DNA of 64,000 nt, from NCBI GenBank assembly GCA_003241285.1, contig QFOT01000001.1, positions 4,645 through 68,644 on the forward strand. Reading direction: 5' to 3'. This stretch comes from Micavibrio aeruginosavorus (lineage in GTDB: Bacteria; Pseudomonadota; Alphaproteobacteria; Micavibrionales; Micavibrionaceae). The position numbers and the translations under genes were made by a program. The notes under the pieces were generated by a model, which saw only the letters and a program-made list of their open reading frames with translations, searched no databases and was not told the DNA's origin. Shown piece after piece: positions 3,454 to 35,099 of this stretch (positions are counted from its first letter, which is position 1; each line of letters opens with the position of its first letter).

Positions 3454-5284
3454 CGATTACTTTATGCTTCAGATATTCCTTCTCGGCTTTGGCCTTGGTC
3501 ACGACATCTTCCAATGCCGTTTTATGGCTTGCCGCATGAGCCAGCGCCTCGTCCTTTTCAAACAGATATACCGGCACGCCCATTTTCTTCATGATCGCAT
3601 ATTGCTGGATGAAAGAAATCAGGTTTGAAAATGTCCAGTAAATCACAAGACCTGACGGGAATTTCGACAGGACGAAAGTCATAACCCATGGCATAAAACG
3701 CATCATGTCTTTCTGGATCGCATCTGTCGGCGGCGGGTTGAGTTTTTGCTGCAGGAGCATCAGGATCAGCATGGCAATCGACCATGGCCCGATATGCAGA
3801 ACTCCCGGCACTTCAAAAGGCAACAACCCGAAAAGATTGAACACGCTTAAAGGATCCTGCTCGGACAAATCCTTGATCCAGCCAAAGAACGGCGCATGGC
3901 GCATTTCAATGGCGATAGAGATAACCTTGTATACCGCAAAGAAGATCGGAATCTGCAGGAGAAGCGGGAAACATCCGGCCATCGGATTGACGCGCTCGGT
4001 TTCATACAGCTTGATCAGCTCCTGCTGCAATTTCGGTTTGTCGTTTGCGTATTTGACGCGAAGCTCCGCCATGCGCGGCGCAACGACTTTCATTTTGGCG
4101 AAAGATTTATAGGAGGCGTTCGCCAGCGGGAAAACAGCCAGGCGCACAAGACAGGTCAAAAGGATAATCGCGATCCCGAAATTTCCGACCCATGAATTGA
4201 ACAGCGTCAGGAAGAAATACATCGGGCGTGTCAGGAAATACAGAATGCCGAAATCGACCGCGAGGTCCAGATGCTTGACGCCTATTTTGGATTCATAGGT
4301 ATCGAGAATATCTATTTTCTTGGCACCGACAAAAATATGGGCTTTGTCTTCGCCAATGCCGTCTTTTCCTATATTCACAGCCTCGCCGCGTATATCGACC
4401 TGGAACAATGTCTGCTCTTCCGGTTCAGCCGGAACGGAGGTAAAGCGGTAAGTATGCTTAGCTGTTTGCTCTGGGATTACCGACGACATCCAGTATTTCT
4501 CGCCAAAACCGATCCATCCGTTCGTTCCCTCGAAGGACTGGTTCGGTTCTTTGATCAGCTTGGCATATTTAATCTCATGCAGGTCTTCGCCGACATAGCC
4601 AATAGGCCCTTCATAACCAACGGTTGAGCTGTGATGCGGAATGCCTTTGCGTGTAATCGATGAATACGGATAAAGCGTGACGGCCTTGCCTGAAGCGTTC
4701 GTTACTTTCTGCGTAACCGTAAACATGAAATTATCGTCGATCTCGATCCGGCGCTCAAAAACCAGACCGGCGCCGTTATCCCATTGCAAAATAAGTGGAG
4801 ATTTTGGTGTCAACTCTTCTTCGCCGGAAACTTTTTTCCAGACGGATGTTTTGCTTGGCACCGCGATCGAAGCATCATCGGCGATCCAGCCATTCTCCGC
4901 ATAATAAGGATTGGCCGTGCCGAGCGGTGAATACATAGTCACCGGTTCGTTGCCATTTAAAGTCGTAAAATAATTTTTTAGTTGAACGTCATCGATACGC
5001 GCGCCGGTCAAGGAAATCGTGCCTTCGATTTGCGGGGAGCTGAATTTTACGCGGCCTTCTTCGGAAACGATTTCGAAGCGCGGGCGAACGACATTGGTTT
5101 CTGCGGTGGCAGTCGGCGCCGGTTTTGCCGCAGCCGCTATGGCCGCTTGCTGGCGGGCAGCTTCTACTTTTGGCTTCATGACAAAATGATCGAAACCGAA
5201 CCACAGCACGATGGCGCAGGCAAGGAAGATGATCAGGTTGCGGATATCCTGAGGATGCATGCCGTTTTGGTTATTGTCGTTCAT
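3368..5284 (-). CDS. yidC: membrane protein insertase YidC
   Basis: 638 aa with an N-terminal TM, a large periplasmic domain and a C-terminal multi-TM core (…FFGWIKDLSEQDP…). Synteny is rpmH-rnpA-yidD-yidC. Confidence 0.95.
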   Translation of the reverse strand: MNDNNQNGMHPQDIRNLIIFLACAIVLWFGFDHFVMKPKVEAARQQAAIAAAAKPAPTATAETNVVRPRFEIVSEEGRVKFSSPQIEGTISLTGARIDDVQLKNYFTTLNGNEPVTMYSPLGTANPYYAENGWIADDASIAVPSKTSVWKKVSGEEELTPKSPLILQWDNGAGLVFERRIEIDDNFMFTVTQKVTNASGKAVTLYPYSSITRKGIPHHSSTVGYEGPIGYVGEDLHEIKYAKLIKEPNQSFEGTNGWIGFGEKYWMSSVIPEQTAKHTYRFTSVPAEPEEQTLFQVDIRGEAVNIGKDGIGEDKAHIFVGAKKIDILDTYESKIGVKHLDLAVDFGILYFLTRPMYFFLTLFNSWVGNFGIAIILLTCLVRLAVFPLANASYKSFAKMKVVAPRMAELRVKYANDKPKLQQELIKLYETERVNPMAGCFPLLLQIPIFFAVYKVISIAIEMRHAPFFGWIKDLSEQDPLSVFNLFGLLPFEVPGVLHIGPWSIAMLILMLLQQKLNPPPTDAIQKDMMRFMPWVMTFVLSKFPSGLVIYWTFSNLISFIQQYAIMKKMGVPVYLFEKDEALAHAASHKTALEDVVTKAKAEKEYLKHKVIDVEEALFDAEDRLLDAAEGKDSKKTEDK

Positions 5285-6981: not shown

Positions 6982-8196
6982 ATGGCGAAATCTAAAAACA
7001 ACTATGACATCATCATTGTCGGCGGCGGCCTTTCAGGCCTTACGCTTGCCTGCCTTTTAGGCACGCATAATTTTTCGGTTCTCTGCCTCGACCGCGACGT
7101 GCCCGCGAATAACAATGCCAATGCCCGCGCTACGGTTTTATCGCACGGCACGAGCCTTGTTTTGAAAGAAGCCGGGCTTTGGGACAAGATCGAGCCCCTC
7201 GCCTGCCCTATTTACAAAATCGATATTCTCGATGGAAATTCACCTGTGCTGATGGATTTTCTGTCAAGCGATGTCGGCGGCAAAGCCTTCGGCCATAACA
7301 TTGAAAATTCTCTTCTGCTAAACCTGCTCGAGCAAAAAATTAAAAAACTCAAAACAGTAAATCATCTAACGTCGACAGAAATTGCCGACATCCGGACAGA
7401 TGACGCCGCCGCTTATATCACGACAAAAGACAAGAAAAAATATTCCGCGCCGCTTCTGATTGGCGCGGATGGCCGCAATTCCTTTATCCGGAAATTTTTA
7501 AATATCACGACACATGGCTGGAACTATGAGCAGACGGCGATCGTCGCCATTTTGGAACATAAAAATCCGCACAACAATGTAGCCATCGAACATTTCAGAA
7601 GCGAAGGTCCGTTGGCAATTCTTCCATTGAGCAATGACGCGACAGGCAATCACCGCTCGACTCTCGTCTGGACGGTTGAGACGCGCAACGCAAAATCTTT
7701 TCTCGATATGGACGAAGATGTTTTTAATACTGCAATCGCCGCCCGCATTCCGCATTCCTATGGCAGAATTACACTTGTCTCGAAGCGCATGTCGTATCCG
7801 CTATCCCTGCAACACGCGCATCACTATATCGGAAACCGCATTGCCTTGATCGCTGACGCTGCACATGGTATGCACCCGATTGCAGGGCAGGGCCTCAACA
7901 TGGGTATGCGTGATATAAAATCATTATCCGATATTCTGATCGATGCGCGAAATACCAAAAAAGACTTCGGCTCTGACAGCATTTTAACAAAATACCAGCG
8001 CGCGCGTCATTTCGACAATATGACGATGATGGCGGCGACCGATGCGCTGAACAAACTTTTTTCGAACGACCTTCCCTTCGTCGGACATCTGCGCCGCATC
8101 GGCGTTGCCGCGATCAACAAAATTCCACCCGCCAAGCGTTTCTTTATGCATCAGGCTATGGGTCTAAAAAGCCGCCGTCATTGCGAGAAGCGTTAG
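6982..8196 (+). CDS. FAD-dependent ubiquinone-biosynthesis hydroxylase, UbiH/UbiF/VisC/COQ6 family
   Basis: Likely start is MAKSKNNYDIIIVGGGLSGL (GxGxxG). Also GADGRNSFIRK and ALIADAAHGMHPIAGQGLNMGMRD motifs. The last codons (RRHCEKR-stop) lie inside repeat element B1. Confidence 0.85.
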   Translation: MAKSKNNYDIIIVGGGLSGLTLACLLGTHNFSVLCLDRDVPANNNANARATVLSHGTSLVLKEAGLWDKIEPLACPIYKIDILDGNSPVLMDFLSSDVGGKAFGHNIENSLLLNLLEQKIKKLKTVNHLTSTEIADIRTDDAAAYITTKDKKKYSAPLLIGADGRNSFIRKFLNITTHGWNYEQTAIVAILEHKNPHNNVAIEHFRSEGPLAILPLSNDATGNHRSTLVWTVETRNAKSFLDMDEDVFNTAIAARIPHSYGRITLVSKRMSYPLSLQHAHHYIGNRIALIADAAHGMHPIAGQGLNMGMRDIKSLSDILIDARNTKKDFGSDSILTKYQRARHFDNMTMMAATDALNKLFSNDLPFVGHLRRIGVAAINKIPPAKRFFMHQAMGLKSRRHCEKR

Positions 8197-8263
8197 CGAC
8201 GCGGCAATCCAGATTTAGCAGTTTTGAAATATTCTGGATTGCTTCGCTTGCGCTCGCAATGAC
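8177..8263. repeat. type-B inverted-repeat element (gtcattgcgag...gcaatccag / ctggattgc...ctcgcaatgac)
   Basis: Two ~30-36-nt arms in inverted orientation around a ~21-nt spacer. A second copy with the same architecture lies at 41978..42072. Confidence 0.85.
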
Positions 8264-8307
8264 AACGAAGACTTTGCAAAGCAACATAAGAGGCCTATGT
8301 TGATTAA

Positions 8308-9405
8308 ATGACCAAAACTCCTGAAAAAAAGAAAATCAATCTCGCACTTCAAGGCGGCGGTAGCCACGGCGCGTTCACATGGGGTGTGCTTGATGAAATC
8401 CTTCGCGATGGGCGCCTTGATTTTGACTCCATCACCGCAACTTCCGCCGGCTCGATGAACGCCGCTATTATGCTCTACGGCCTGCATAAAGGCGGCAATG
8501 AGGGTGCGCGCGAACTCCTGGAAACTTTCTGGCGACGCACCTCCGAGGCAGGCTCATGTTTCAATCCGCTCTCGCAAGTTAACAGCAACTATCTTGAAAA
8601 ATTCTTTCCATGGATCCCCAAGCCTTTTTTGAATAACGCCGCAGGCCTTAATTATCTGGAGAATGTCGGACAGACGATTTCCCCCTACCGCTCCAATCCG
8701 CTCAATCTCAATCCGTTGCGCGACATTCTGGCCTCGCTGATCGATTTCGACAATCTGCCGGAAACATCCCGGTGGAAAGTTTTTATTTCCGCGACCAATG
8801 TCCGCATCGGTGAATCGCGCGTCTTTAAAAACGAAGAGATCACGCTCGACGTCTTGATGGCTTCTGCCGCCCTGCCTTATTTGTTTCAGGCGGTCGAGAT
8901 CGACGGCGATTTCTACTGGGATGGCGGCTATACGGGTAATCCTTCTCTCTGGCCGCTTTTCTATGAATCCGAAACGCGGGATCTGTTGATCGTCCACGTC
9001 AATCCTCTCAAGCGGCCCGAATTGCCCAAGGAAGCTTATGAGATTGAAAACCGCCTGAACGAGATCACGTTCAACTCCTCGCTGCTCGATGAGCTTCGCG
9101 CCATCCAGTTTGTTCAAAAACTGCTTGAGAAGGACATGCTCAAGGACGAATTCAAGGACCGCTATAAGGATATCCGCCTGCATGCCATACGCTCCGAGGA
9201 AACCATGCGGGAATTTGGCGTTTCATCTAAATACGACACGAGCTGGCATTTCCTGACCAGTCTTCGGGATGCCGGCCGCGACGTCGCCAGGACGTGGCTC
9301 AAAAACCATTTCAAGGATATCGGGGAAACCGGCACGGTCGATATCCAGCGGGACTATCTTTCACCCGAAAAAGAGCTGAACCAGAAAATGGTCAGGAAGA
9401 AATAA
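8308..9405 (+). CDS. patatin-like phospholipase
   Basis: Oxyanion-hole motif GGGSHGAFTWGVLD, nucleophile elbow ATSAGS (GxSxG-like) and catalytic Asp motif WDGGYTGNPS. Confidence 0.85.
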   Translation: MTKTPEKKKINLALQGGGSHGAFTWGVLDEILRDGRLDFDSITATSAGSMNAAIMLYGLHKGGNEGARELLETFWRRTSEAGSCFNPLSQVNSNYLEKFFPWIPKPFLNNAAGLNYLENVGQTISPYRSNPLNLNPLRDILASLIDFDNLPETSRWKVFISATNVRIGESRVFKNEEITLDVLMASAALPYLFQAVEIDGDFYWDGGYTGNPSLWPLFYESETRDLLIVHVNPLKRPELPKEAYEIENRLNEITFNSSLLDELRAIQFVQKLLEKDMLKDEFKDRYKDIRLHAIRSEETMREFGVSSKYDTSWHFLTSLRDAGRDVARTWLKNHFKDIGETGTVDIQRDYLSPEKELNQKMVRKK

Positions 9406-9420
9406 ATCTTCCCTTGAGCT

Positions 9421-9446
9421 GTCATCCCCGCGCAGGCGGGGATCTC
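9421..9446 (+). repeat. type-A element variant (gtcatccccgcgcaggcggggatctc)
   Basis: Same flanks (gtcat...gatctc) as type A, with a compensated stem ccccgc/gcgggg. Confidence 0.8.
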
Positions 9447-9470
9447 TCTCCCTTAATAAATACTTAAAAT

Positions 9471-9499
9471 TTGAGATATATGCTTATTTGCACTATACT
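9471..9499 (+). promoter_or_regulatory. putative sigma70-type promoter (TTGAGA-17-TATACT)
   Basis: Hexamers with 17-nt spacing about 30 nt upstream of ORF 9529. Sequence match only. Confidence 0.35.
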
Positions 9500-9528
9500 C
9501 ATGAGAAGAAGAAAAAGGGTGTGCAATA

Positions 9529-9957
9529 GTGCTGAATACGGAAACTATGGACCGGCCAGTCGATCCTAAAATCGCCGATGAAGACGATATCGACGTCTTC
9601 GCCGCCCGTGAGGGAGATAATTCAAAATATGTGATCGCCGCCGATGCACCCGTGCTGCCCTCTTTGGCCAGCCGCTGCAATACCGAGCTCGTGGTCAAGG
9701 ATGACGGATCGTCCATGGTGCTGTTCGATGCGCCGATGCCCGATGCCGTTCACTGGGTCGAATATGATATGGATCTTGACAGTCTGACCTTTGTCACATG
9801 GCGCGGGGCGATTTTCTCGCTCGGCATGAAAATCCACAAACCGTTTAGAAAATACTTAAGCAAAAAATTTGAAATTTACCTGGTCGAAATGGGCGAAGGC
9901 AAAGAGATGCGGATGATGGATATCGTCCCGCTGATCGTCCGTAGAATCGGGATATAG
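9529..9957 (+). CDS. hypothetical protein (142 aa)
   Basis: ORF only, with GTG at 9529 or ATG at 9547. Ends 11 nt before the next gene, so it is probably co-transcribed. No motif recognised. Confidence 0.5.
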   Translation: MLNTETMDRPVDPKIADEDDIDVFAAREGDNSKYVIAADAPVLPSLASRCNTELVVKDDGSSMVLFDAPMPDAVHWVEYDMDLDSLTFVTWRGAIFSLGMKIHKPFRKYLSKKFEIYLVEMGEGKEMRMMDIVPLIVRRIGI

Positions 9958-14424: not shown

Positions 14425-15204
14425 ATGACCTCACGCATTTCCTCGATTTTCGCTTCTAATATAGCGGGCGGCAAAAAAGCCCTTGTCACCTATATCGTCG
14501 CCGGCGATCCTGATCTGGCGGCCTCGCAAGAAATTCTCGAAAGCCTGCCGGAAGCCGGGGCCGATATTATAGAGCTTGGCATTCCCTTCACCGATCCCAT
14601 GGCAGACGGTCCGGTTATCCAGGATGCCGCGCTCCGCGCCCTCGCCAACGGCATGACCATAGCCAAACTTTTCCAGATGGTGCGCGATTTCCGGATCAAG
14701 AATGACACAACGCCGATTGTCCTGATGGGCTATTTCAATTCCGTCTTTGCCTATGGCGCGGAAAAATTCGCCCTTGATGCGAAATCCGCCGGTGTTGATG
14801 GATTGTTGATCGTCGATCTCCCGAGCGAAGAAGAAGATGAACTGGTTATCCCGTGTAAAGAGCATGGGCTCGATTTTATCCGTCTTGCCACGCCAACCAC
14901 CGATGTCAAACGCCTTCCCAGCGTTTTGAAAAACGCTTCCGGTTTTCTTTATTATGTAGCTGTGGCGGGTATCACGGGAACGACCTCGGCCTCTGCTGAC
15001 AATCTCAAACCAGCCCTCGATGAAATCCGCAAACACACGAAACTCCCGATTTGCGTCGGCTTCGGCATTAAAACGCCGGAAGACGCGAAAGCCATGGCGG
15101 AAATTGCCGATGGCGTCGTTGTAGGCTCTGCCTTGGTAGATTTAATCAGCAAAAAAGCCGATCACTCGGCCTTTATTAAGTCATTAAAATCTTCGATTAT
15201 GTGA
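14425..15204 (+). CDS. trpA: tryptophan synthase alpha chain
   Basis: 259 aa with the ELGIPFTDPMADGPVIQ motif. Confidence 0.95.
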   Translation: MTSRISSIFASNIAGGKKALVTYIVAGDPDLAASQEILESLPEAGADIIELGIPFTDPMADGPVIQDAALRALANGMTIAKLFQMVRDFRIKNDTTPIVLMGYFNSVFAYGAEKFALDAKSAGVDGLLIVDLPSEEEDELVIPCKEHGLDFIRLATPTTDVKRLPSVLKNASGFLYYVAVAGITGTTSASADNLKPALDEIRKHTKLPICVGFGIKTPEDAKAMAEIADGVVVGSALVDLISKKADHSAFIKSLKSSIM

Positions 15205-21209: not shown

Positions 21210-24200
21210 TTATTGGGTGATGATGCCTTCAATGGCTTTTTCATCAAGCTCTTTTAAATCCTCCTCGCTCAAAGGATCGTCGATATTGGGCATAGCGCCT
21301 GCCGGCGCATTCAGCGCGTCTATATTACGCTGTCGCGCGCTGGATCCGGCAGAGGTCTGAACGGAGGCCGCCTGCTCGGTAGCTTTGGCCAGTTCATCAG
21401 TCGCCTCGACTTTCATTTCTTCTGGATCCTCAATGGACGCGTCAAGATCGACATTAAGGGACATGAACTCACGATCCGGCAGGCCGAAGGCGATTTTGTA
21501 ATTGCCGCCTTTGACCGCAGGGAAAATAAAATAGCCATCGGAATCCGTTTCGGTTTTTTCGACTTCTTTACCATCTATGCCGCTGACCAATCTAACCACG
21601 ACACCTTCAAGCCCGCGCTTCAGATGGGTTAGATAGCCCGCAATCTCTGACATTTTTACGAACGGGAAATCAATCACGGGCGTCGATCCCCGGCGCGGGA
21701 TCAAATCACGGTGATCGAATTTCGGCGCGAGATAGATGTCGGGAATGGATTCTGTTTGAACAATGATACGCGCAGGCGCCTCGCCAAGCCCTGTCAGGTA
21801 AGATACGCCTTCTTTATCCGTCGCCGCTTTTTCTGATCTGGTGCTGGATTTAAATTCGACACCTTCAATCGTTTTCTCGCCGTTATCATAAATTTCATTG
21901 TTGTTGTCGTCGATAAAAGCTCTTGCCCCTAATGACGCCAGACCGCCCGTTCTAGGGTCGACAAAATGGTAGTTATTCTTTTGATCCGGTTGCAATGCCA
22001 CTCTCAGACCTACCGTGAAGGCATAGTTGTTTTCGGTGTCGGCGTTGACATCGAAATCGAGGCCGTATTTATCAAAATCCCGACTTAGCCGCAGATTAAG
22101 ATTTTTTGTTTTGCTTTCAAAATCATGACTGCCTTCAAATCTGAAACTCGTCCGCGATGAAAGGCTTTTCTGGCCGCTAAAACTCAAACGCCTGTACTTT
22201 GACGGCGCATCTTCGTCGAGATCATACAACAAGGCGCTCCTCAATCGTATATTATAGAGGCTTGCCAGAGCTGATAACTCGCCTTCAAAATCATCTATGC
22301 TCTTACTTTTTGAAAAGGTTCGAACAAGGTCGTTGTTTATGCTAATGCCCAGAAATTTAAAGGAGGTGATCTGCTCAAAAATTCTGTCGTCTTCGCGATT
22401 TAGAAAATCCCTGTCCTCGACACGGAATGTGAGGTTGAGCCCGCCAAAATTTCTGCTTAGATTGACCTCGTTCCGGCTCTTTATGTCCTGATCTTCGGAA
22501 AGGAAATTCCGGTACGTGGTATGCGAAGCACCAAGATTGAATCCGAAAGGCTTCGTCGCTGCCGCCAGTTCATAGGCGCGACGACCGCTATCGGCGGCCA
22601 GGGCCTGGCCCTGCAGGTTGATGCCGCTGAATGACGTCGCTGCTGAAACGGCAGCGCCGCTCGCGCGAACCGAGTCCCGGTCATCGAAATTACTTCCGCT
22701 TTCAAATGAAGTGCTGGTAAAATTGCCGACATCGTTATTTATAGCATCCTGCGGGCCTGAATAAACGCTCGTGCCAAGAGTGAAGAATTTGCTGACGCCG
22801 TAGAAAATCTGCCCGCTCATGCCCGGCGTTCGGTTGCTCTGTGCATCTTCATCGAATGGCAGAAAATCTGATTCAGGCGTACCGGCAGCGAAATCATATT
22901 GGATTTCGCCGTCGCGCAGGAGTCTGGGGCCTCTTGCAATTTCACGCTTTATGCTGGTTTTCTGTCCTTGTGGTCCATAAAGTATAACTTCAAAATTATT
23001 AAATCCGGACGGAAGATTAACGTTTTCGAACACGAACCGGCCATCTGACCCGACCTGCTGGAAAGCGATAAAGGAACCGTTACGGTACAGTTCAGCATCC
23101 CATCCGACTGGCGCGTCGCCATCGAGGATAAAATTCTCGGAATTGGTTGCGTATCTTGAACCAAGCCTTGAATCTGAAGAAATTTCAATCCCCGCGCCCC
23201 GCTGTCCGCCTGCAAACAGGGGCACGCTTGGAAAAGACACGTCGCCGAATGAAATTCTTCCGGCTCGCAATGGACCCAAAAGATTATTCTGGTTGTCCCG
23301 CCGTTGGAATGTAAGGCGGGAATTTGAAATCTCGGAAGTTCCCCGGCTGTTATAGCGAGTGCCGATGGCATAGTCGGCCTCGAATTTTGCAATGTCCTGA
23401 TTTCCCTGCAATGTCGCAAGACCGAGAAAACTTTGACCGGAGCTGCTTTTTTGTATCCCGCCTGTGGTCGTGATATAGAGCGACGGATAAGAAAAATTTC
23501 TGTACGGGGCTAAAACGGCATTTTGGGGTTTTATTGCATCATAGCGAAAAGTCTTCATTCTCTTTTCGGCGTTTAGCAGACGTTTCATTCTTTCCTGGAA
23601 AGGCAAGTCGCTTCCGGTGTCGAGATCTAAAACCAGCGAGTTTATGTTGAGGGTCGCGGAAATGCCAAACCACTTTTTAAGCGATGACGCCCTGACAAAA
23701 ATATCATCTTCGATAATTTCAGCCTCACCGGCCTCAAGTTTCTCTTTCTTGCCATCGACAAGAACATCTCCGGAATTGAGATCAAGCTGAAACACATTGT
23801 CAGATGAAATAAAGAATCCTTCCGCCTTCTTGTCGCCTGTATTTACGGTAATAGCAAAAGTCAGTAATTCCGCCATCGAGCGAAGCGGAACCATAACGTC
23901 GCTGTAGCTCGCCCCGGCCGGCAAGAAGATGCTAAGACCCTCTTCTCTGATCATCCCATTGATATTGACGGCCACGAGTATTTCATCATTGCCGGAAAGC
24001 TCTATCTTATTTTCTGTTTCAGTATCGTTGATGACATTGGCGGGCGGAGAATCCTGGTTTAATTGTTGTGCCCCTTCCTCTTGCAACTGAATTTCAGGCG
24101 CAGGCATTCCTTCAGCGGCCTGCGCAAAAGCGCCGCTGTTCACGGTTAGGCAAAGACTCAAAACAATCGCCTTACATAAAGCGATTGATAGCGTTTTCAC
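21210..24200 (-). CDS. fimbrial usher-like outer-membrane protein with a C-terminal extension
   Basis: 996 aa, signal peptide ends AFA/QA. Usher-like barrel/plug stretch: GRISFGDVSFPSVPLFAGGQRGAGIEISSD...DAELYRNGSFIAFQQVGSDGRFVFENVNLPSGFNNFEVILYGPQGQ. C-terminal carboxypeptidase-regulatory-like segment DSDGYFIFPAVKGGNYKIAF followed by an acidic tail. Confidence 0.7.
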   Translation of the reverse strand: MKTLSIALCKAIVLSLCLTVNSGAFAQAAEGMPAPEIQLQEEGAQQLNQDSPPANVINDTETENKIELSGNDEILVAVNINGMIREEGLSIFLPAGASYSDVMVPLRSMAELLTFAITVNTGDKKAEGFFISSDNVFQLDLNSGDVLVDGKKEKLEAGEAEIIEDDIFVRASSLKKWFGISATLNINSLVLDLDTGSDLPFQERMKRLLNAEKRMKTFRYDAIKPQNAVLAPYRNFSYPSLYITTTGGIQKSSSGQSFLGLATLQGNQDIAKFEADYAIGTRYNSRGTSEISNSRLTFQRRDNQNNLLGPLRAGRISFGDVSFPSVPLFAGGQRGAGIEISSDSRLGSRYATNSENFILDGDAPVGWDAELYRNGSFIAFQQVGSDGRFVFENVNLPSGFNNFEVILYGPQGQKTSIKREIARGPRLLRDGEIQYDFAAGTPESDFLPFDEDAQSNRTPGMSGQIFYGVSKFFTLGTSVYSGPQDAINNDVGNFTSTSFESGSNFDDRDSVRASGAAVSAATSFSGINLQGQALAADSGRRAYELAAATKPFGFNLGASHTTYRNFLSEDQDIKSRNEVNLSRNFGGLNLTFRVEDRDFLNREDDRIFEQITSFKFLGISINNDLVRTFSKSKSIDDFEGELSALASLYNIRLRSALLYDLDEDAPSKYRRLSFSGQKSLSSRTSFRFEGSHDFESKTKNLNLRLSRDFDKYGLDFDVNADTENNYAFTVGLRVALQPDQKNNYHFVDPRTGGLASLGARAFIDDNNNEIYDNGEKTIEGVEFKSSTRSEKAATDKEGVSYLTGLGEAPARIIVQTESIPDIYLAPKFDHRDLIPRRGSTPVIDFPFVKMSEIAGYLTHLKRGLEGVVVRLVSGIDGKEVEKTETDSDGYFIFPAVKGGNYKIAFGLPDREFMSLNVDLDASIEDPEEMKVEATDELAKATEQAASVQTSAGSSARQRNIDALNAPAGAMPNIDDPLSEEDLKELDEKAIEGIITQ

Positions 24201-24265
24201 TTACATACAGTCTCCAAAAAGACGTGTTAAACGGAAATCCCGGGCAGGGATCTTCGGCTCCTTGG

Positions 24266-25099
24266 TTAAGGAATTGAGAGTGACGTTTCCTGAACGAGAT
24301 CGGGTTTTGATTTTTCTCCGGTCAGTAAACGCAATTGTATTTTTCCGCCCTGAATCCCCTCAGGCAGTTTAAAGTCGAACTTATAATCCCGCTTGTCGAT
24401 TTCCCGGTATATATAGGCTGTGCGGCGTTTGCCGATTTGCTTAGAGTCATATAAGACGTCAAAGAAGGCTACGCCCTGCCCGTTTCCGGAGCGGGTCAGC
24501 TGCATCGACACCGTATATGTTCCCGGCTGCGCGCCGGGCTTCACCGATTTCGAAATTTTAGGATCGATCCAGTTTACCGATGTTTCCACTTTTCCTTTGC
24601 TAAGGGTGACGGGCATCATGACCGAATACGCTAATGGTACGCTGGTCACAGCCTGACCACTTGCGACCGCCAAACCTTCCACTTCTGGCTTGCTTTGCTT
24701 AGTGCTGTCTTCAAGAAAATAGACATGCGAATGATACTGGCCGTCTGGCGTATCGGCTGGCATTTTGGCCATTATCCGGACAGATTGTTTTTGCCCTGCC
24801 GGGATTGTGAATTGACGTGGGAAAAAGCGAAGCATTTTCTTTGCCGAATAGTCAAAATTATCAACGGTCTGCGTTACACCCTTCTCCAGCATAATAATAT
24901 CCTTCACGCCGACAGTGTACGTCCGGTCCAAATTGGACATGTTGGTGACGTTCATAACCGCCACTTTGCTTTTTTCGCTAAGATTGACGCGCGTGGGGCT
25001 GACAAAGAGTATTTCCGACGCAAAAGCAGGAATAGCATAAAGTGCAGTCAGAATAATTTGCACCGCGAGGAGCGTTAGAAAATTTCTGTTTTTTTTCAT
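24266..25099 (-). CDS. PapD-like periplasmic fimbrial chaperone
   Basis: 277 aa, signal peptide ends AFA/SE. The N-terminal strands ILFVSPTRVNLSEKSKVAVMNVTN resemble the chaperone F1/G1 region with its conserved Arg. Sits between the subunit and usher genes. Confidence 0.65.
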   Translation of the reverse strand: MKKNRNFLTLLAVQIILTALYAIPAFASEILFVSPTRVNLSEKSKVAVMNVTNMSNLDRTYTVGVKDIIMLEKGVTQTVDNFDYSAKKMLRFFPRQFTIPAGQKQSVRIMAKMPADTPDGQYHSHVYFLEDSTKQSKPEVEGLAVASGQAVTSVPLAYSVMMPVTLSKGKVETSVNWIDPKISKSVKPGAQPGTYTVSMQLTRSGNGQGVAFFDVLYDSKQIGKRRTAYIYREIDKRDYKFDFKLPEGIQGGKIQLRLLTGEKSKPDLVQETSLSIP

Positions 25100-25115
25100 T
25101 GTCCAACCTTTTCCA

Positions 25116-25676
25116 TTATTGAAAAACTGCGCTAAGGGTTAAAGAAGCACCGCCGCCATTTGAGCTTGTGAAAGAGCTCTCGCCGCTTAAGGCGCCGGAA
25201 GAAATATTGAGCTTTCCACCAAAAAAGAGTTTCGGATTCGGCGAATTATCAAGATCAATGACAAGAGCATCAGGCGCGCCGCCGCCGGCTCCTTCGCATT
25301 CATCAGCGCTGCCAGGAGGCAATCCTGTATCTACCGCCACTTCGATATCGCTGATGGGAATAGGGGATCCGCTGCTGCTGGCCAACGCACCGGTATCGTC
25401 GCATCTGATTTCAACAATGCCGGTTGAGCCCGTGATCGAAATCTGGGCCGGGACCGCGCCACCTTGATAATATAGCCCGCTTCCGGTGAGATTAACGGCT
25501 CCGTTGGTTCCAAGTGTTAATTCGCCGCTGTGAAAAGATGAATATTCTATCAATCCGAAATTCATGTTGCTGTCGAGCGCCATTTGCACCGTCTGGGCAA
25601 ATGCCGGGGAGATCAACGAAAGCAAAAGAATTAATCCCGGCGATTTACAGAACGCGCCTTTGATTCGGGCATACAT
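25116..25676 (-). CDS. DUF4402-like secreted fimbrial subunit (second/minor)
   Basis: 186 aa, signal peptide ends AFA/QT. Contains MNFGLIEYSSFHSGELTLGTNGAV, one Cys pair and a C-terminal strand LTLSAVFQ. Confidence 0.6.
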   Translation of the reverse strand: MYARIKGAFCKSPGLILLLSLISPAFAQTVQMALDSNMNFGLIEYSSFHSGELTLGTNGAVNLTGSGLYYQGGAVPAQISITGSTGIVEIRCDDTGALASSSGSPIPISDIEVAVDTGLPPGSADECEGAGGGAPDALVIDLDNSPNPKLFFGGKLNISSGALSGESSFTSSNGGGASLTLSAVFQ

Positions 25677-25747
25677 ACCTCTAGATATATTGAAATTTGC
25701 CTTTAAAATATATGCTTAACGAAACTAGGGCAGGTTTAATACATTAA

Positions 25748-25756
25748 TTATCCACA
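25748..25756 (+). promoter_or_regulatory. perfect DnaA-box 9-mer (TTATCCACA)
   Basis: Exact 9-mer in the gap between the two subunit genes, next to the hairpin. The match may be fortuitous. Confidence 0.2.
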
Positions 25757-25760
25757 TATA

Positions 25761-25789
25761 AAAACCGCCGCTTTGGAAGCGGCGGTTTT
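25761..25789 (-). terminator. hairpin/attenuator after the first subunit gene
   Basis: On the minus strand: gaaaaccgccgc-ttccaaa-gcggcggttttt followed by T/A. Lies 17 nt downstream of the stop of 25806..26399. Confidence 0.65.
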
Positions 25790-25805
25790 CATGAATTCTT
25801 CGGGA

Positions 25806-26399
25806 TTATTGGTAAGTAACAGCCAGAGTGATCGTCGTACCGCCTGTACCTGTTGCGTAAACGCCATCGGTATCGAGCGGCGAAGCCGTCAGGTCAAGAG
25901 AGGCGCCGACAAGAATCGTATCATCTGTTGCCAGGTCCATTGTTTCGGATGTGGTTGTAGAGTCGACACAAGCATTCGCTGCTCCCGTGGCAACGCCAAT
26001 CGTATTGTCTGCCCCGGCAATAACTTCAATACCAACTATATTGAGCGTGTTACCGGCACCGTCGCCCATAGTTGCCGTGGCGTCACAGGCGATATCCACA
26101 TCGGAAGCGCCATCACCGGCAACGGTAATTTCACCGGCTCCTGGAGCCAGAGGTGTTGTATCAAAGGTTACCCCCGTACCTCCGGCAACAGCGTCGTTCG
26201 TTGCAAGTGTAACGGTACCGGAGTTAGCGGCCAGGTAATCGATTGTGCCGAAGCTCATGATAGCGGCTTCTGTAAGCTCAATCGCCGCACGGCCTTGAGC
26301 TGTTGCGTTAATTTCTAATTCTGTTGCTTTGGCGGAGTTTACTCCCCCTAACGCGACGGTTAAAGCAGTGGCAAGCAGCAATTTCTTTGCGGTTCTCAT
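25806..26399 (-). CDS. DUF4402-like secreted fimbrial subunit (first/major)
   Basis: 197 aa, signal peptide ends AKA/TE. Contains MSFGTIDYLAANSGTVTLATNDAV and is Thr/Gly/Ala/Asp-rich, with one Cys pair and a C-terminal strand ITLAVTYQ. SD aaaggga lies upstream. Confidence 0.65.
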   Translation of the reverse strand: MRTAKKLLLATALTVALGGVNSAKATELEINATAQGRAAIELTEAAIMSFGTIDYLAANSGTVTLATNDAVAGGTGVTFDTTPLAPGAGEITVAGDGASDVDIACDATATMGDGAGNTLNIVGIEVIAGADNTIGVATGAANACVDSTTTSETMDLATDDTILVGASLDLTASPLDTDGVYATGTGGTTITLAVTYQ

Positions 26400-31148: not shown

Positions 31149-32405
31149 ATGAATTTACAGGATTTAAAAACCCGCAGCCCTGCTGAACTGCTCGCCTTTG
31201 CCGAGGAGCTTGATATCGAAAACTGCGCCTCTATGCGCAAGCAGGACATGATGTTCGCTATTTTGAAACGCCTTGCCGAACAGGGAGTGCCGATCGCGGG
31301 CTCCGGCGTTCTGGAAGTCTTGCAGGACGGCTTCGGCTTCCTGCGCGCGCCCGAAGAAAACTATTTGCCGGGTCCGGATGATATTTACGTCTCCCCGTCC
31401 CAGGTTCGCCGTTTTGGTCTTCGCACAGGCGACAGCTTAGAGGGCGAGATCCGCGCCCCGAAAGATTCAGAGCGTTACTTCGCCCTTCTCAAAGTCGACA
31501 GCATCAACGGCGAAACGCCGGAGAAACTGCGTCACCGTATCAATTTCGATAACCTGACGCCTCTCTACCCGGAACGCAAGATCAAGCTCGAGCTTGACGA
31601 TCCGACAAAGAAAAACATGACCCAGCGCGTGATCGAGCTGACCTCGCCGATCGGTTTCGGCCAGCGGGCTTTGATCGTCGCCCCGCCGCGTGTCGGTAAA
31701 ACTGTTATGCTGCAGGATATCGCGGCTTCAATTGCGGCTAACCACCCGGATGCCTATCTCCTTGTTCTCCTGATCGATGAACGTCCCGAGGAAGTGACCG
31801 ACATGGCGCGCAGTGTGCGCGGCGAGGTTATCTCCTCGACCTTCGACGAACCGGCCTCGCGCCACGTTCAGGTCGCCGAAATGGTCATGGAAAAAGCTAA
31901 GCGTCTTGTCGAACACAAGCGCGACGTTATCGTTCTTCTCGACTCCATCACAAGACTTGCCAGGGCGTACAACACGGTTGTCCCGTCTTCGGGTAAGGTT
32001 TTGACGGGCGGTGTCGATGCCAACGCCCTCCAGCGCCCGAAACGCTTCTTCGGTGCGGCGCGTAATATCGAACAGGGCGGAAGCCTGACCATTATTGCGA
32101 CCGCCTTGATCGATACAGGTTCGCGCATGGACGAAGTTATCTTCGAAGAATTCAAAGGTACGGGTAACTCCGAGATCGTTCTTGATCGCAAGATCGCCGA
32201 CAAGCGCGTCTTCCCGGCCATCGATATTCAAAAATCCGGTACGCGGAAAGAAGAACTTCTTGTCGACAAACAGACTCTGCAAAAAATGTGGGTCCTTCGC
32301 CGTATTCTCAACCCGATGGGAACGGTCGATGCCATGGAATTCCTGCTTGATAAACTCAAGGACACCAAAGGCAATGACGATTTCTTCCAGTCAATGAACC
32401 AGTAA
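31149..32405 (+). CDS. rho: transcription termination factor Rho
   Basis: 418 aa with an N-terminal RNA-binding domain (GFGFLR) and Walker [12 protein letters not shown]. Confidence 0.97.
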
Positions 32406-32408
32406 TTT

Positions 32409-32434
32409 AAACCCCGCTTTAGCGGGGTTTTTTA
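32409..32434 (+). terminator. rho-independent terminator
   Basis: accccgc-ttta-gcggggt followed by tttttt, directly after the rho stop. Confidence 0.85.
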
Positions 32435-32474
32435 TCGAACAAGATCAAATTTTATTTAAAATTAAATCCGTGTT

Positions 32475-32495
32475 TAAAGTAACAATGTTACTTTA
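32475..32495. promoter_or_regulatory. perfect 21-bp palindrome (taaagtaaca-a-tgttacttta), candidate operator
   Basis: 10+1+10 perfect inverted repeat about 30-55 nt upstream of the first pilin-like gene. Confidence 0.4.
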
Positions 32496-32526
32496 GGTAA
32501 TACTTATAAAAAATGCTGCGACCGAA

Positions 32527-33318
32527 ATGTTAATTCGAAAGGAATTGAACATGGAAAACTGCAACCATAAATCAAGCCTGTCGCCATCTTGCGAAAGTGG
32601 CAACGTCCTTTTCCTTATCCTTATTGCCATCGTCTTGTTCGCCGCACTGGCTTATGCGGTGACGCAATCATCCCGCTCCGGTGGCACCGATGTAAATTCA
32701 GAGAAAGCGGATCTGGCGGCAGCGCAGATTGCCCAATACGGCGCACAGATTTCCACGGCTGTGATGCGGGTCAGAGTAGGCAATGGCTGCAGCGAAACCG
32801 AGATCAATTTTGAAAACCCCCTGATGACGCATCCGGATTATTGGGGCGGCAGCACGAATACGACAGCCCCGGCTGACGGAAGATGCAATATATTCGGGCC
32901 TAACGGCGGCGGGGCGGTATACTGGGATGCAAGAAAACAACTGCCCAACGATGATCCTGTTTATAATTACCTGACATTCACGACGAAAGTCGGTGTCAAG
33001 AATGTTGGTACCGATGCCAGTGAATTGATGATGTATTTCGTCATGGCGTCGAACGATCAGGCGAAAAAGATTTGCGAGGCCTATAATAAGCGCCTTGGCA
33101 TCACAGGCGATACGACATCGGGCACTACCCGCTCCCTGAACTGGGATATGGCAACGGGGGCCGGGTTGGCTTACGTAGCGGCCCCGTCGGATGTGAGTCT
33201 GATCGGCGAAGATCCCGTGCCTTCGGCTTTCTCTGGCCAGACGACAGGATGCCTGACCGGAGCCAGCTCGCATGATGCGGACAACCAGATTATTTATTAC
33301 GTTCTATCCGCGCGGTAA
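32527..33318 (+). CDS. pilin-like protein with an N-terminal hydrophobic helix, tandem paralog 1
   Basis: 263 aa. A better SD (aaaggaa) precedes the internal ATG at 32551. Contains GNVLFLILIAIVLFAALAYAVTQSSRSGG followed by a globular domain with 4 conserved Cys. Collinear with the next gene. Confidence 0.7.
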   Translation: MLIRKELNMENCNHKSSLSPSCESGNVLFLILIAIVLFAALAYAVTQSSRSGGTDVNSEKADLAAAQIAQYGAQISTAVMRVRVGNGCSETEINFENPLMTHPDYWGGSTNTTAPADGRCNIFGPNGGGAVYWDARKQLPNDDPVYNYLTFTTKVGVKNVGTDASELMMYFVMASNDQAKKICEAYNKRLGITGDTTSGTTRSLNWDMATGAGLAYVAAPSDVSLIGEDPVPSAFSGQTTGCLTGASSHDADNQIIYYVLSAR

Positions 33319-33373
33319 AAGCCTATGATAAGATAATATCAAAAAATTAAGCATAACCTCAATTAACCATGCT

Positions 33374-34153
33374 ATGGTCATAAACATGAAATTCAGAACG
33401 ATTTATGTAGTCAGAAACAGCAATGCTGAAAAAGGGAATGTTCTTTTCCTTATCCTGATAGCCGTTGCTCTCTTTGCAGCGCTTTCTTACGCGGTGACGC
33501 AATCATCCCGCTCCGGCGGAACGAGCGCTACTTCAGAAAAAGCCGATTTGGCGGCTGCCCAGTTTTCGCAATATGGTGCGCAAATTGCTATGGCGATAAT
33601 GAGATTAAAAGTCAGCAATGGCTGCAGCGAAACGCAGATCAGTTTTGAAAACCCCATAATGTCTCATCCGGATTACTGGGGTGGCAGCGCAAACACGACG
33701 GCTCCATCAGACGGGAGATGTAACGTGTTCGGGCCTAACGGCGGCGGCGTTGTCTATTGGGACATCAGAAAACAATTTCCTAATGAAGATCCCGTTTATA
33801 ATTACCTGAATTTTACTCCCCGTCTTGGCATAAAAGACGTTGGAACGGGGGCAAGTGAGCTTGTCATGTATTTCAGAATGGATTGGAGTGATCAGGCAAA
33901 GAAGATTTGTTCATCCTATAATAATAAAATGGGCATTACAGGTGATACGACTTCTGGCACAACCAACACGAATGACTGGCATTTTGCCATGGGCAATGGG
34001 CTGAGTTACGAAGCGGCGCCTATTGATACTTTAACGATAGGGGATGACCCGACCCCATCGGCCTTTGCAGGGCAAACCACAGGATGCCTCACTGGGTCCA
34101 GCTCTCATAACGGCGATAGCCAGATGCTGTATTATGTAGTTATGGCGCGCTAA
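33374..34153 (+). CDS. pilin-like protein with an N-terminal hydrophobic helix, tandem paralog 2
   Basis: 259 aa with GNVLFLILIAVALFAALSYAVTQSSRSGG. Gap-free alignment by eye to paralog 1, with the majority of positions identical. Confidence 0.7.
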   Translation: MVINMKFRTIYVVRNSNAEKGNVLFLILIAVALFAALSYAVTQSSRSGGTSATSEKADLAAAQFSQYGAQIAMAIMRLKVSNGCSETQISFENPIMSHPDYWGGSANTTAPSDGRCNVFGPNGGGVVYWDIRKQFPNEDPVYNYLNFTPRLGIKDVGTGASELVMYFRMDWSDQAKKICSSYNNKMGITGDTTSGTTNTNDWHFAMGNGLSYEAAPIDTLTIGDDPTPSAFAGQTTGCLTGSSSHNGDSQMLYYVVMAR

Positions 34154-34214
34154 AAGCCTTTATTGCAGGCTGATTTAAATCCTGCTTAAATCCTCTTTTT
34201 TAAGGGGATACTCA

Positions 34215-35099
34215 ATGAAACATCACCTGACCACCGTCGCCATAGCTGCCATTGTGGCTTTCGGCATTGGCTATCTGCCTAAATCTACCAACGAACATAA
34301 AATACCGTCTGAAAAAATTCAGGCCGATAAAAAAATCGAATCCGCTTACCAAAGGGTCCTTCGTACAGGTACGCTTCGCTGCGGCTATGCCCTCTATGCG
34401 CCGATGCTGTCCAAAGACCCAAACACAGGAGAGATGTCCGGCATTGCCGCCGATGTCATCAATGCCGTGGCGAAATCGCTCGACCTTAAAGTTGAATGGA
34501 CGGCAGAATTTGGTTTCGCGACATCGATATCAGATTTGGAATCCGATCGCTTTGACCTGACCTGTATCGGGTTCTGGCGACTGCCGCTCGAAGCAAAACG
34601 CCTCACCTACACGGTGCCCTTCCTCTATAGCCAGATGAACCCTTATATCCGCGCCGACGATACGCGTTTTGATGGGGACTATTCAAAAATCAATGAGGCT
34701 TCCATCAGGATTATTTCAGCTGATGGCCAGATGTCATCGAGCGTAGCCCGCACGGAATTCCCAAAGGCGCAATTGATAGAGCTTCCGAACATGGCGTCAA
34801 TCTCCCAGCAAATGGAAGAGGTCGCATCAGGAAAAGCCGATATCGTTCTCGATGAACCGGCTGCTGCAGAAGATTACATGATTAAAAATCCGGGTAAGCT
34901 CCGCAAGGTTGAAGCCGCATATCCTCTGCGTGTCTTTCAAAATACTTTCGCGATGAAAATGGGCGAGAACGATTTAAAGACGATGCTAGACAGCGCTTTG
35001 ATCGACGTCATCGAAAACGGCGAGATGGATAAAATTCTTGCAAAATACGACCCCGATAACAAAATCTTCAAGAAAGTCGCGAAAGGCTACCAGCCGTGA
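34215..35099 (+). CDS. ABC transporter substrate-binding protein (family 3, polar amino acid type)
   Basis: 294 aa with an N-terminal anchor/signal. Lies upstream of the cognate permease and ATPase genes. General SBP-3 pattern seen (GTLRCGY...). Confidence 0.7.
   Translation: MKHHLTTVAIAAIVAFGIGYLPKSTNEHKIPSEKIQADKKIESAYQRVLRTGTLRCGYALYAPMLSKDPNTGEMSGIAADVINAVAKSLDLKVEWTAEFGFATSISDLESDRFDLTCIGFWRLPLEAKRLTYTVPFLYSQMNPYIRADDTRFDGDYSKINEASIRIISADGQMSSSVARTEFPKAQLIELPNMASISQQMEEVASGKADIVLDEPAAAEDYMIKNPGKLRKVEAAYPLRVFQNTFAMKMGENDLKTMLDSALIDVIENGEMDKILAKYDPDNKIFKKVAKGYQP

Follow-up and report, generated by a model that had tools for sequence, protein, structure and literature searches.

Which kind of protein is encoded by two adjacent, closely related genes that follow a rho homolog in Micavibrio aeruginosavorus, and which machinery would handle it? 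The locus lies in a stretch of 64,000 nucleotides (contig QFOT01000001.1 of assembly GCA_003241285.1, positions 4,645 to 68,644 of the forward strand), referred to here as the window, in which the gene pair is situated between the rho homolog (31149-32405) and an operon for an amino-acid ABC transporter. Gene 1 (32551..33318, plus strand) encodes a pilin-like family member of 255 amino acids (aa) and gene 2 (33374..34153, plus strand; alternative start at 33386) its tandem paralog of 259 aa. An initial annotation, made from the nucleotide sequence, had left the choice between a divergent class of pilins or pseudopilins and a family of signal-anchored surface proteins. The pilin option is favoured by the linkage of the family to an assembly machine, in that one of its clades is encoded directly 3' of a cluster for an A24 peptidase, a secretin, an ATPase and a platform protein, and by the hyper-conservation of the N-terminus with a near-invariant Gly at position -1. 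We consider it likely that the two genes are tandem, dispersed members of a very large type IV pilin-like family with a non-canonical class III signal. The proteins of this family probably serve a divergent type IV filament machine as substrates, most likely as subunits.

The N-terminal signal and the linked filament machine

The longest open reading frame (ORF) of gene 1 spans 32527-33318 on the plus strand (263 aa). The ATG at 32551 is the most likely start codon, because an AAGGA ribosome-binding site is situated 7 nt 5' of it and because the gene calls for the gene 1 protein (P0001) and for most of its closest homologs begin with MENC. The initial annotation had described two adjacent proteins of about 260 aa that align without gaps and are mostly identical, and this is borne out by BLASTP (72% identity, 86% positives, 0 gaps over 241 aa, E 5e-140). 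The four Cys residues listed for the head (NGC, GRC, KIC, TGC) are likewise found in both copies. The Cys of KIC is the only one that is invariant in every family alignment, while that of TGC, its partner, shows no variation among 35 members and reaches at least 90% conservation in larger sets.

Both proteins start with a short polar leader ending in Gly, which is followed by NVLFLILIA(I/V)xLFAALxYAVTQSSRSGG and then by the head. The N-terminal motif is ESGNVLFLILIAIVLFAALAYAVTQSSRSGG for gene 1 and EKGNVLFLILIAVALFAALSYAVTQSSRSGG for gene 2, and in a six-frame translation of the window it is restricted to these two genes. In gene 1, the putative leader MENCNHKSSLSPSCESG (32551..32601, plus strand, 17 aa) ends in the near-invariant Gly and precedes the 21-residue hydrophobic tract NVLFLILIAIVLFAALAYAVT (32602..32664, plus strand), a putative α1N without Glu at +5. 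In gene 2, the putative leader (33374..33436, plus strand, 17-21 aa) ends in the Gly codon at 33434-33436, and the tract NVLFLILIAVALFAALSYAVT (33437..33499, plus strand) also comprises 21 residues. The motif with its short variable leader and the lack of both Phe at +1 and Glu at +5, all of which had been pointed out before, thus hold for either protein.

The same anatomy is apparent across the family. Among 137 diverse representatives, mostly about 30-40% identical to gene 1, 133 bear the motif. Leaders are 12 aa long at the median and net basic (mean 2.5 K+R versus 1.1 D+E), position -3 is occupied by Glu or Gln in 116 of the 133, resulting in a family-wide (E/Q)-x-G pattern, and Asn is present at +1 in all 133. 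Gly-1 is invariant in alignments of 35 and 120 sequences and at least 90% conserved in the set of 137. The mean frequency of the top residue is 0.90 over the 28 motif columns from Gly to GG, 0.49 in the following helix and 0.42 in the remainder; a conserved α1N combined with a variable head is the pattern of pilins. Cys residues number 2, 4 or 6 in 121 of the 137 members, and these mostly even counts together with the basic leader argue for an extracytoplasmic, disulfide-bonded head. A class III signal peptide is defined by a hydrophilic leader, roughly 6-26 aa in length, with a conserved Gly at its end and about 21 mostly hydrophobic residues after it. The N-terminus of the family has every element of such a signal except Glu5.

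A prepilin peptidase and pilus machinery, for which the initial annotation had recommended a search beyond the window, are encoded in related genomes. Searches with tblastn using the machine proteins of one reference locus (L002) covered 81 loci with 98 family genes. The cluster of L002 ends in P0066, a family homolog with 37% identity. It opens with a divergently transcribed gene for a Peptidase_A24 protein of 166 aa (Pfam E 5e-19), followed by a single-domain response regulator and a secretin (Pfam 6.5e-17) that is closest to MshL among the NCBIfam models (1e-25), with type IVb PilN (1.7e-20) and GspD (3e-9) behind. Next come a conserved 534-aa secreted Ig-like choice-of-anchor-D protein with ASH/HYDIN-type domains (3654-5258), which could be a periplasmic component or a substrate, an ATPase of 597 aa (Pfam T2SSE 1.8e-78; NCBIfam GspE 4e-69, PilB 1.5e-65) and a polytopic platform protein of 406 aa (7096-8316; Pfam T2SSF 4.4e-4; NCBIfam GspF 6.7e-5). 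Two bitopic proteins of 319 and 176 aa without recognised domain (g319 and g176) then precede the family member P0066. All NCBIfam scores of the cluster proteins are below the equivalog cut-offs. The best PDB match of the ATPase is GspE/EpsE (5.9e-51), followed by PilF/PilB, and its match to the TadA family amounts to 7e-17. The platform has 1,049 homologs, named type II secretion system (F family) protein or PulF by NCBI/JGI, and the best 120 of them are 81-91% identical; this is unusually high when set against the pilin-like heads, which share only about 30% identity between family members.

Of the 98 family genes, 31 are located less than 400 bp 3' of a g176 homolog. ATPase, platform, g319 and g176 genes stand together immediately 5' of the family gene in 26 loci, and the A24 peptidase is present in 21. 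In these 21 cluster peptidases the D...LP, LGLGDVKL and PAGPGF stretches are at least 95% conserved, and we take the two Asp residues in D...LP and LGLGDVKL to be the PilD-type catalytic aspartates. The cluster peptidase, with its 166 aa, is devoid of a methyltransferase domain. A neighbour-joining tree restricted to the head domain places the 31 machine-linked copies in a single clade, to which only one further member (L077) belongs; it is situated beside a gene for a second pilin-like protein on a short contig. The closest relative of the window, the metagenome-assembled genome (MAG) CAZWGO01, contains both a rho-linked ortholog with 85% identity (L003) and a machine cluster (L075).

That second pilin-like protein is encoded directly 3' of the machine-linked gene in L002 (10724-11473, 249 aa, N-terminus GSAL(V/I)YILIAIALLAALT...) and in the same position in about 30 loci. 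The N-terminus of this second family follows the pattern (E/Q)xGSAL(V/I)YILIAIALLAALTxSFMEPSSQQTSS, with Ser at +1 and again no Glu5. It is a candidate minor subunit.

Pilin subunits or other envelope proteins

Several results weigh against the assignment to type IV filament subunits. Nearly all bacterial pilins have Glu5, and mutants in this residue fail to homopolymerise, whereas position +5 of the family is Leu in 126 of the 133 motif-bearing representatives and Asp or Glu is absent from +1 to +22 in 131 of them. The stretch SYA|V within the motif also conforms to the -3/-1 rule for signal peptidase I. When both window proteins were compared with Pfam and NCBIfam at E values up to 10, only noise was returned (DUF1385, Annexin), with no match to Pfam N_methyl or any other pilin model, and a family profile run against all PDB sequences gave one chance match (E 0.97) and no pilin. 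Homologs of the A24 peptidase, secretin, T2SSE ATPase and platform were not detected in the window by tblastn with the L002 machine proteins, just as the initial annotation had stated for pilus assembly genes, and regular-expression scans of the window gave neither a canonical prepilin nor a Flp motif. Furthermore, the window genes belong to the clade of dispersed paralogs and not to the machine-linked one.

The predicted structure points the other way, but weakly. The AlphaFold2 model of the gene 1 protein, calculated from an alignment of 120 sequences, is confident, with a predicted local distance difference test score (pLDDT) of 87.3 and a predicted template modelling score (pTM) of 0.78; a model of the head only is similar (pLDDT 89.3, pTM 0.88). 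A predicted helix comprising the hydrophobic tract (residues 19-40) is followed by a hinge (41-47, SSRSGGT), a second helix of 30 residues (48-77) with a long loop after it, a pair of strands (142-149 and 158-165), a helix (169-181) and two further strands (232-236 and 246-253). The initial annotation had suggested testing for a pilin fold. The outcome is weakly positive: helix-loop-helix plus four strands fits, and the top three PDB matches in both Foldseek searches, with the full-length and the head-only model, are the type IV pilin PilA1 of Clostridioides difficile. Speaking against a pilin, however, the PilA1 matches are not significant (E 0.088-0.7, probability up to 0.35, template modelling score 0.43-0.45) and predicted α1 is interrupted by the conserved SSRSGG hinge instead of forming one continuous helix. 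Neither search gave a match at E ≤0.001, and the remainder consisted of noise (GAPDH, kinase, antibody). The modelled lollipop-like fold is compatible with a pilin rather than demonstrative of one.

The proteins might also be uncleaved, signal-anchored components of the periplasm or inner membrane, bitopic with the N-terminus inside, in which case the machine-linked member would be an accessory protein comparable to GspC, PilN or PilO. A single hydrophobic segment of transmembrane length after a basic N-terminus accords with this, as do the missing Glu5, the missing pilin profile match, the non-significant structural match to pilins and the fact that the cluster already holds the bitopic proteins g319 and g176. 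Yet a mere anchor leaves unexplained the near-invariant Gly-Asn at the cytoplasmic boundary and a conservation of 90% over 28 residues in proteins whose heads are about 30% identical. A structural component would not be expected in at least 7-8 copies per genome, in tandem arrays and with diversified heads, and the A24 peptidase of the cluster would have no evident substrate beside it, as no canonical prepilin is encoded there. We judge this explanation to be quite improbable. Another reading is an unusually long Sec-type (class I) signal peptide that is cut by signal peptidase I after S-Y-A and releases soluble periplasmic or secreted proteins. Signal peptidase I calls for small residues at -3 and -1, and a basic n-region, a hydrophobic core and S-Y-A are indeed all present. 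On the other hand, the core of about 21 residues has transmembrane length and exceeds typical h-regions, the segment is by far the most conserved part of the protein although signal peptides that are discarded usually show little conservation, the conserved stretch extends beyond the putative cut site (VTQSSRSGG), and such a signal would not account for the association with an A24 peptidase and a type IV filament machine. Such processing appears highly improbable.

A further possibility is that the class III signals are genuine and that the proteins are displayed in a machine-dependent manner without a long pilus, similar to the Sulfolobus bindosome or to the periplasmic pseudopilins in type II secretion systems (T2SS). 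Many paralogs with large (about 200 aa), diverse heads on one common N-terminal helix would suit this arrangement, and so would an ATPase closest to GspE, a platform annotated as a T2SS protein and a cluster that encodes no retraction ATPase; the bindosome, in which the Bas machine attaches binding proteins that bear class III signals to the envelope, provides a precedent. Against it stand the secretin, which is nearest to MshL and type IVb PilN and not to GspD, the profile scans of the cluster, in which no GspC/L/M, GspG-K or GspH-K homologs were detected, and the heads, which lack a recognised ligand-binding domain. We regard it as rather unlikely.

If the proteins are subunits of a type IV filament, the precursor would insert into the inner membrane with its N-terminus inside and its C-terminus outside, and the short basic leader would be cut after the near-invariant Gly by the dedicated short A24 aspartyl prepilin peptidase. 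The mature protein would then start at Asn1, probably unmethylated given that the cluster peptidase has no methyltransferase domain, and would be held in the membrane by the near-invariant 21-residue helix. The GspE/PilB-type ATPase and the PulF-like platform could extract the subunit and polymerise it through this helix, and the filament would pass through the secretin and display the head, which comprises about 200 aa, is stabilised by disulfides and differs greatly from one paralog to the next. As the N-terminal helix is common to all paralogs, a single machine could work with many alternative subunits; for the window pair, it would have to be encoded outside the 64 kb. The product may be a surface pilus or a short T2SS-like pseudopilus, and cleavage, assembly and any role in prey contact are inferred. 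A farther-reaching proposal, which we put forward tentatively and consider doubtful on balance, is that Micavibrio-like epibiotic predators possess an unrecognised class of type IV filaments that assemble without Glu5, by means of a near-invariant helix that begins at Asn1 and leads into a Gly-rich hinge, and present interchangeable prey-recognising or prey-holding heads, drawn from several to many paralogs per genome and thousands of sequence clusters, on one conserved machine, with the window pair as alternative subunits under their own conserved regulatory region.

The tandem pair, its upstream region and the wider family

The MAGs of two loci, L001 and L003, each have one rho-linked copy, to which gene 1 is orthologous (85% aa identity). 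Gene 2 has no counterpart at the rho locus of these closest relatives, which carry one copy there. Rho of the window is 98.8% identical at the aa level to Rho of two uncultured Micavibrio sp. MAGs, and the gene order is the same, which identifies the host as a Micavibrio-like alphaproteobacterium. In the tree, both window genes group with the L001 and L003 orthologs among the dispersed paralogs and gene 2 branches within the rho-linked subclade. This position, together with the single copy in the relatives, speaks for a duplication specific to this lineage or for the loss of a copy from the relatives. The initial annotation had viewed the duplication as recent and as a sign of diversification under selection, and neither part can be upheld. 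Synonymous sites of gene 1 and gene 2 are saturated (pS 0.70) at a nucleotide identity of 70%, and the ratio of non-synonymous to synonymous substitution rates (dN/dS) is about 0.10 with a dN of 0.20. The comparison of gene 1 with its orthologs gives a dS of 1.7-1.8 and an omega of about 0.055, while dS for Rho is about 0.85. A recent duplication with positive selection was rejected on account of the saturation and of both ratios, and no sign of positive selection is seen on this coarse measure. Hence the two copies arose long ago, and purifying selection acts on each of them.

The 145 bp of non-coding DNA 5' of gene 1 (32406..32550, plus strand) were compared with L001 and L003 and are about 98-100% identical to the orthologous regions there; synonymous sites of rho and of the pilin-like gene are 50-70% divergent from those of the same two loci. 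The region presumably holds promoter, operator and 5' untranslated region of gene 1, and strong constraint on it as an operator or promoter is likely to judge from this conservation. A hairpin read by eye (CCCCGC-TTTA-GCGGGG followed by T6; 32412..32433, plus strand) is the probable intrinsic terminator of rho. It was absent from the output of a consensus promoter and terminator scan that stood at background level, and an Rfam search of 32300-34300 yielded no family match but only sub-threshold ones driven by the same hairpin. With rho terminating at this point, gene 1 would need a promoter of its own. A perfect palindrome (32476..32494, not assigned to a strand; 9+1+9) with the arms AAAGTAACA-A-TGTTACTTT, in continuous form AAAGTAACAATGTTACTTT, lies about 57 bp 5' of the start codon. 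The core of the palindrome, GTAACANTGTTAC, recurs at the corresponding sites of L001 and L003, and outside these two orthologous positions the palindrome was encountered neither in the rest of the window nor in the other loci. It is a candidate operator for a dimeric regulator. In L001 (MAG CAYNRY01), an unrelated ORF of 155 aa (9347-9850) is located between rho and the pilin-like gene. Behind it, the last rho codons (ATGAACCAGTAA) and the terminator are present once more, a repetition suggestive of insertion accompanied by a target duplication.

The family to which the pair belongs is very large. A word-indexed search returned 181 relatives from MAGs assigned to Micavibrio, Rhodospirillaceae or Alphaproteobacteria, and every named one is listed as a hypothetical protein; a look-up of contigs by the exact sequence of gene 1 returned no record. 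A profile search of 1.84 billion representatives gave at least 4,692 clusters at 50% identity (E ≤1e-3), almost all from Micavibrio-like Alphaproteobacteria; 2,589 of the clusters have E ≤1e-30. In a genome scan, at least 378 stretches were confirmed, nearly all from Micavibrio-like MAGs and the complete genome of M. aeruginosavorus HCB189; cultivable M. aeruginosavorus has family members as well (L071). Among the 80 loci retained, single MAGs carry at least 7-8 copies. Tandem arrays of two to four family genes are frequent, with examples in L007, L017, L024, L032, L041, L054 and L070, and L052 has three dispersed copies. A Pfam scan of the 137 diverse members revealed no relevant family, neither a pilin nor a ligand-binding domain. 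A description of the family or its cluster was not found in the literature on Micavibrio and Micavibrionales, on pilins lacking Glu5 or on novel type IV filaments.

An orphan member is encoded at 9989-10744 of L040 (7825-15264) in Sphingomonas kyeonggiensis DSM 101806. As far as translations read by eye can tell, its neighbours resemble a relaxase and a small Mob-type protein paired with it, a Fic protein and a transposase, and a search of the surrounding 10 kb at E 1e-5 detected no machine genes. The family member may thus have reached a host outside the Micavibrio lineage by horizontal transfer, carried on a mobile element. In L049, the gene directly 3' of a family member (10957 onward) is an ORF of 421 aa with a canonical prepilin N-terminus (NGFSLIELAIWLVIIG, Glu5 present), and a second N-terminus of canonical type (GLSLVELSIVLIVVG) is found at 14824. 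The window itself also contains a possible chaperone-usher-type fimbrial cluster on the minus strand (21210-26399), with the same order in L001: a protein of 996 aa that matches Usher weakly (E 4.8e-5) and has an SdrD_B domain, a 277-aa Fn3-like protein and two DUF4402 proteins. This cluster is unrelated to the type IV filament family.

Relation to known type IV filament systems

The combination described here, a machine conserved across many Micavibrio-like genomes and paired with a hyper-diverse family that is listed only as hypothetical proteins, has a bearing on how completely the diversity of such filaments has been recorded. The survey of the type IV filament superfamily required a major pilin detected by profiles and inferred that few new families remain (Denise et al., 2019). 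A survey of this type would probably miss such a system, because the subunits of the family match no pilin profile. In the genome paper of M. aeruginosavorus, a T2SS without GspC, G, H and K, eight canonical prepilins and a Flp pilin are annotated and the present family is not recognised, and reviews treat Micavibrio pili as barely characterised. Should the proteins polymerise, they would provide a bacterial exception to the almost general requirement for Glu5 when pili assemble and a concrete candidate for prey attachment by epibiotic predators.

Two established systems were considered and rejected. The T2SS has five pseudopilins encoded with GspC, D, E, F, L and M, and the N-terminus of GspG-type proteins contains Glu5. 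Canonical T2SS pseudopilins do not agree with a cluster that has only two pilin-like genes, gave no profile matches to GspC/L/M or GspG-K, and encodes a secretin nearer to MshL and PilN. Tad/Flp pilins are only about 50-80 aa long, exhibit a G/xxxxEY motif and depend on a TadA-type ATPase and paired TadB/TadC platforms. The family differs in its length of about 255 aa, the absence of the EY motif, an ATPase that scores far better with GspE than with TadA (4e-69 versus 7e-17) and a single platform gene.

Bacterial type IV pilins and pseudopilins such as PilA/PilE and GspG are among the nearest known systems. Shared features are the short hydrophilic leader ending in Gly, the hydrophobic tract of about 21 residues as the most conserved part, the variable disulfide-bonded head, the N-terminal helix with four β-strands, which in our case is predicted, and the linkage to an A24 peptidase, a GspE/PilB-type ATPase, a PulF-type platform and a secretin. 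The family deviates from them in having neither Glu5 nor Phe or Met at +1 but a conserved Asn, in the missing N_methyl match, in a peptidase of 166 aa without methyltransferase domain, in an α1 that is split by the SSRSGG hinge, and in its size of at least 4,692 clusters at 50% identity. Minor pilins of the GspK/PilX type are bacterial proteins with class III signals and large heads that also lack Glu5. They are, however, single tip subunits and the other members of their sets keep Glu5, whereas here the whole family, its machine-linked clade and the second pilin-like family (GSALVYILIAIALLAAL...) are all without it.

In functional terms, archaeal sets of pilins without Glu5 and the bindosome are the nearest analogies. 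In archaeal type IV pilins, too, Glu5 is often absent. PilA1-6 of Haloferax volcanii have one conserved hydrophobic domain in common. Archaeal systems resemble the present one in the lack of Glu5, in paralogs with a near-identical hydrophobic N-terminus and different heads, and in a short peptidase without methyltransferase domain. Sequence homology of the family to archaeal pilins was not detected, and in contrast to these the family resides in diderm alphaproteobacteria with a secretin and an ATPase of the GspE/PilB clade, not of the archaeal/Tad clade. The Sulfolobus bindosome (Bas) offers a parallel insofar as diverse globular proteins have a single type of class III signal in common and are served by one type IV filament-type machine. 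It is archaeal, though, and its sugar-binding heads are recognisable, while the heads of our family match no known domain. The family would represent a variant within the type IV filament superfamily that is placed outside type IVa pili, type IVb pili, mannose-sensitive haemagglutinin (MSH) pili, the T2SS and Tad.

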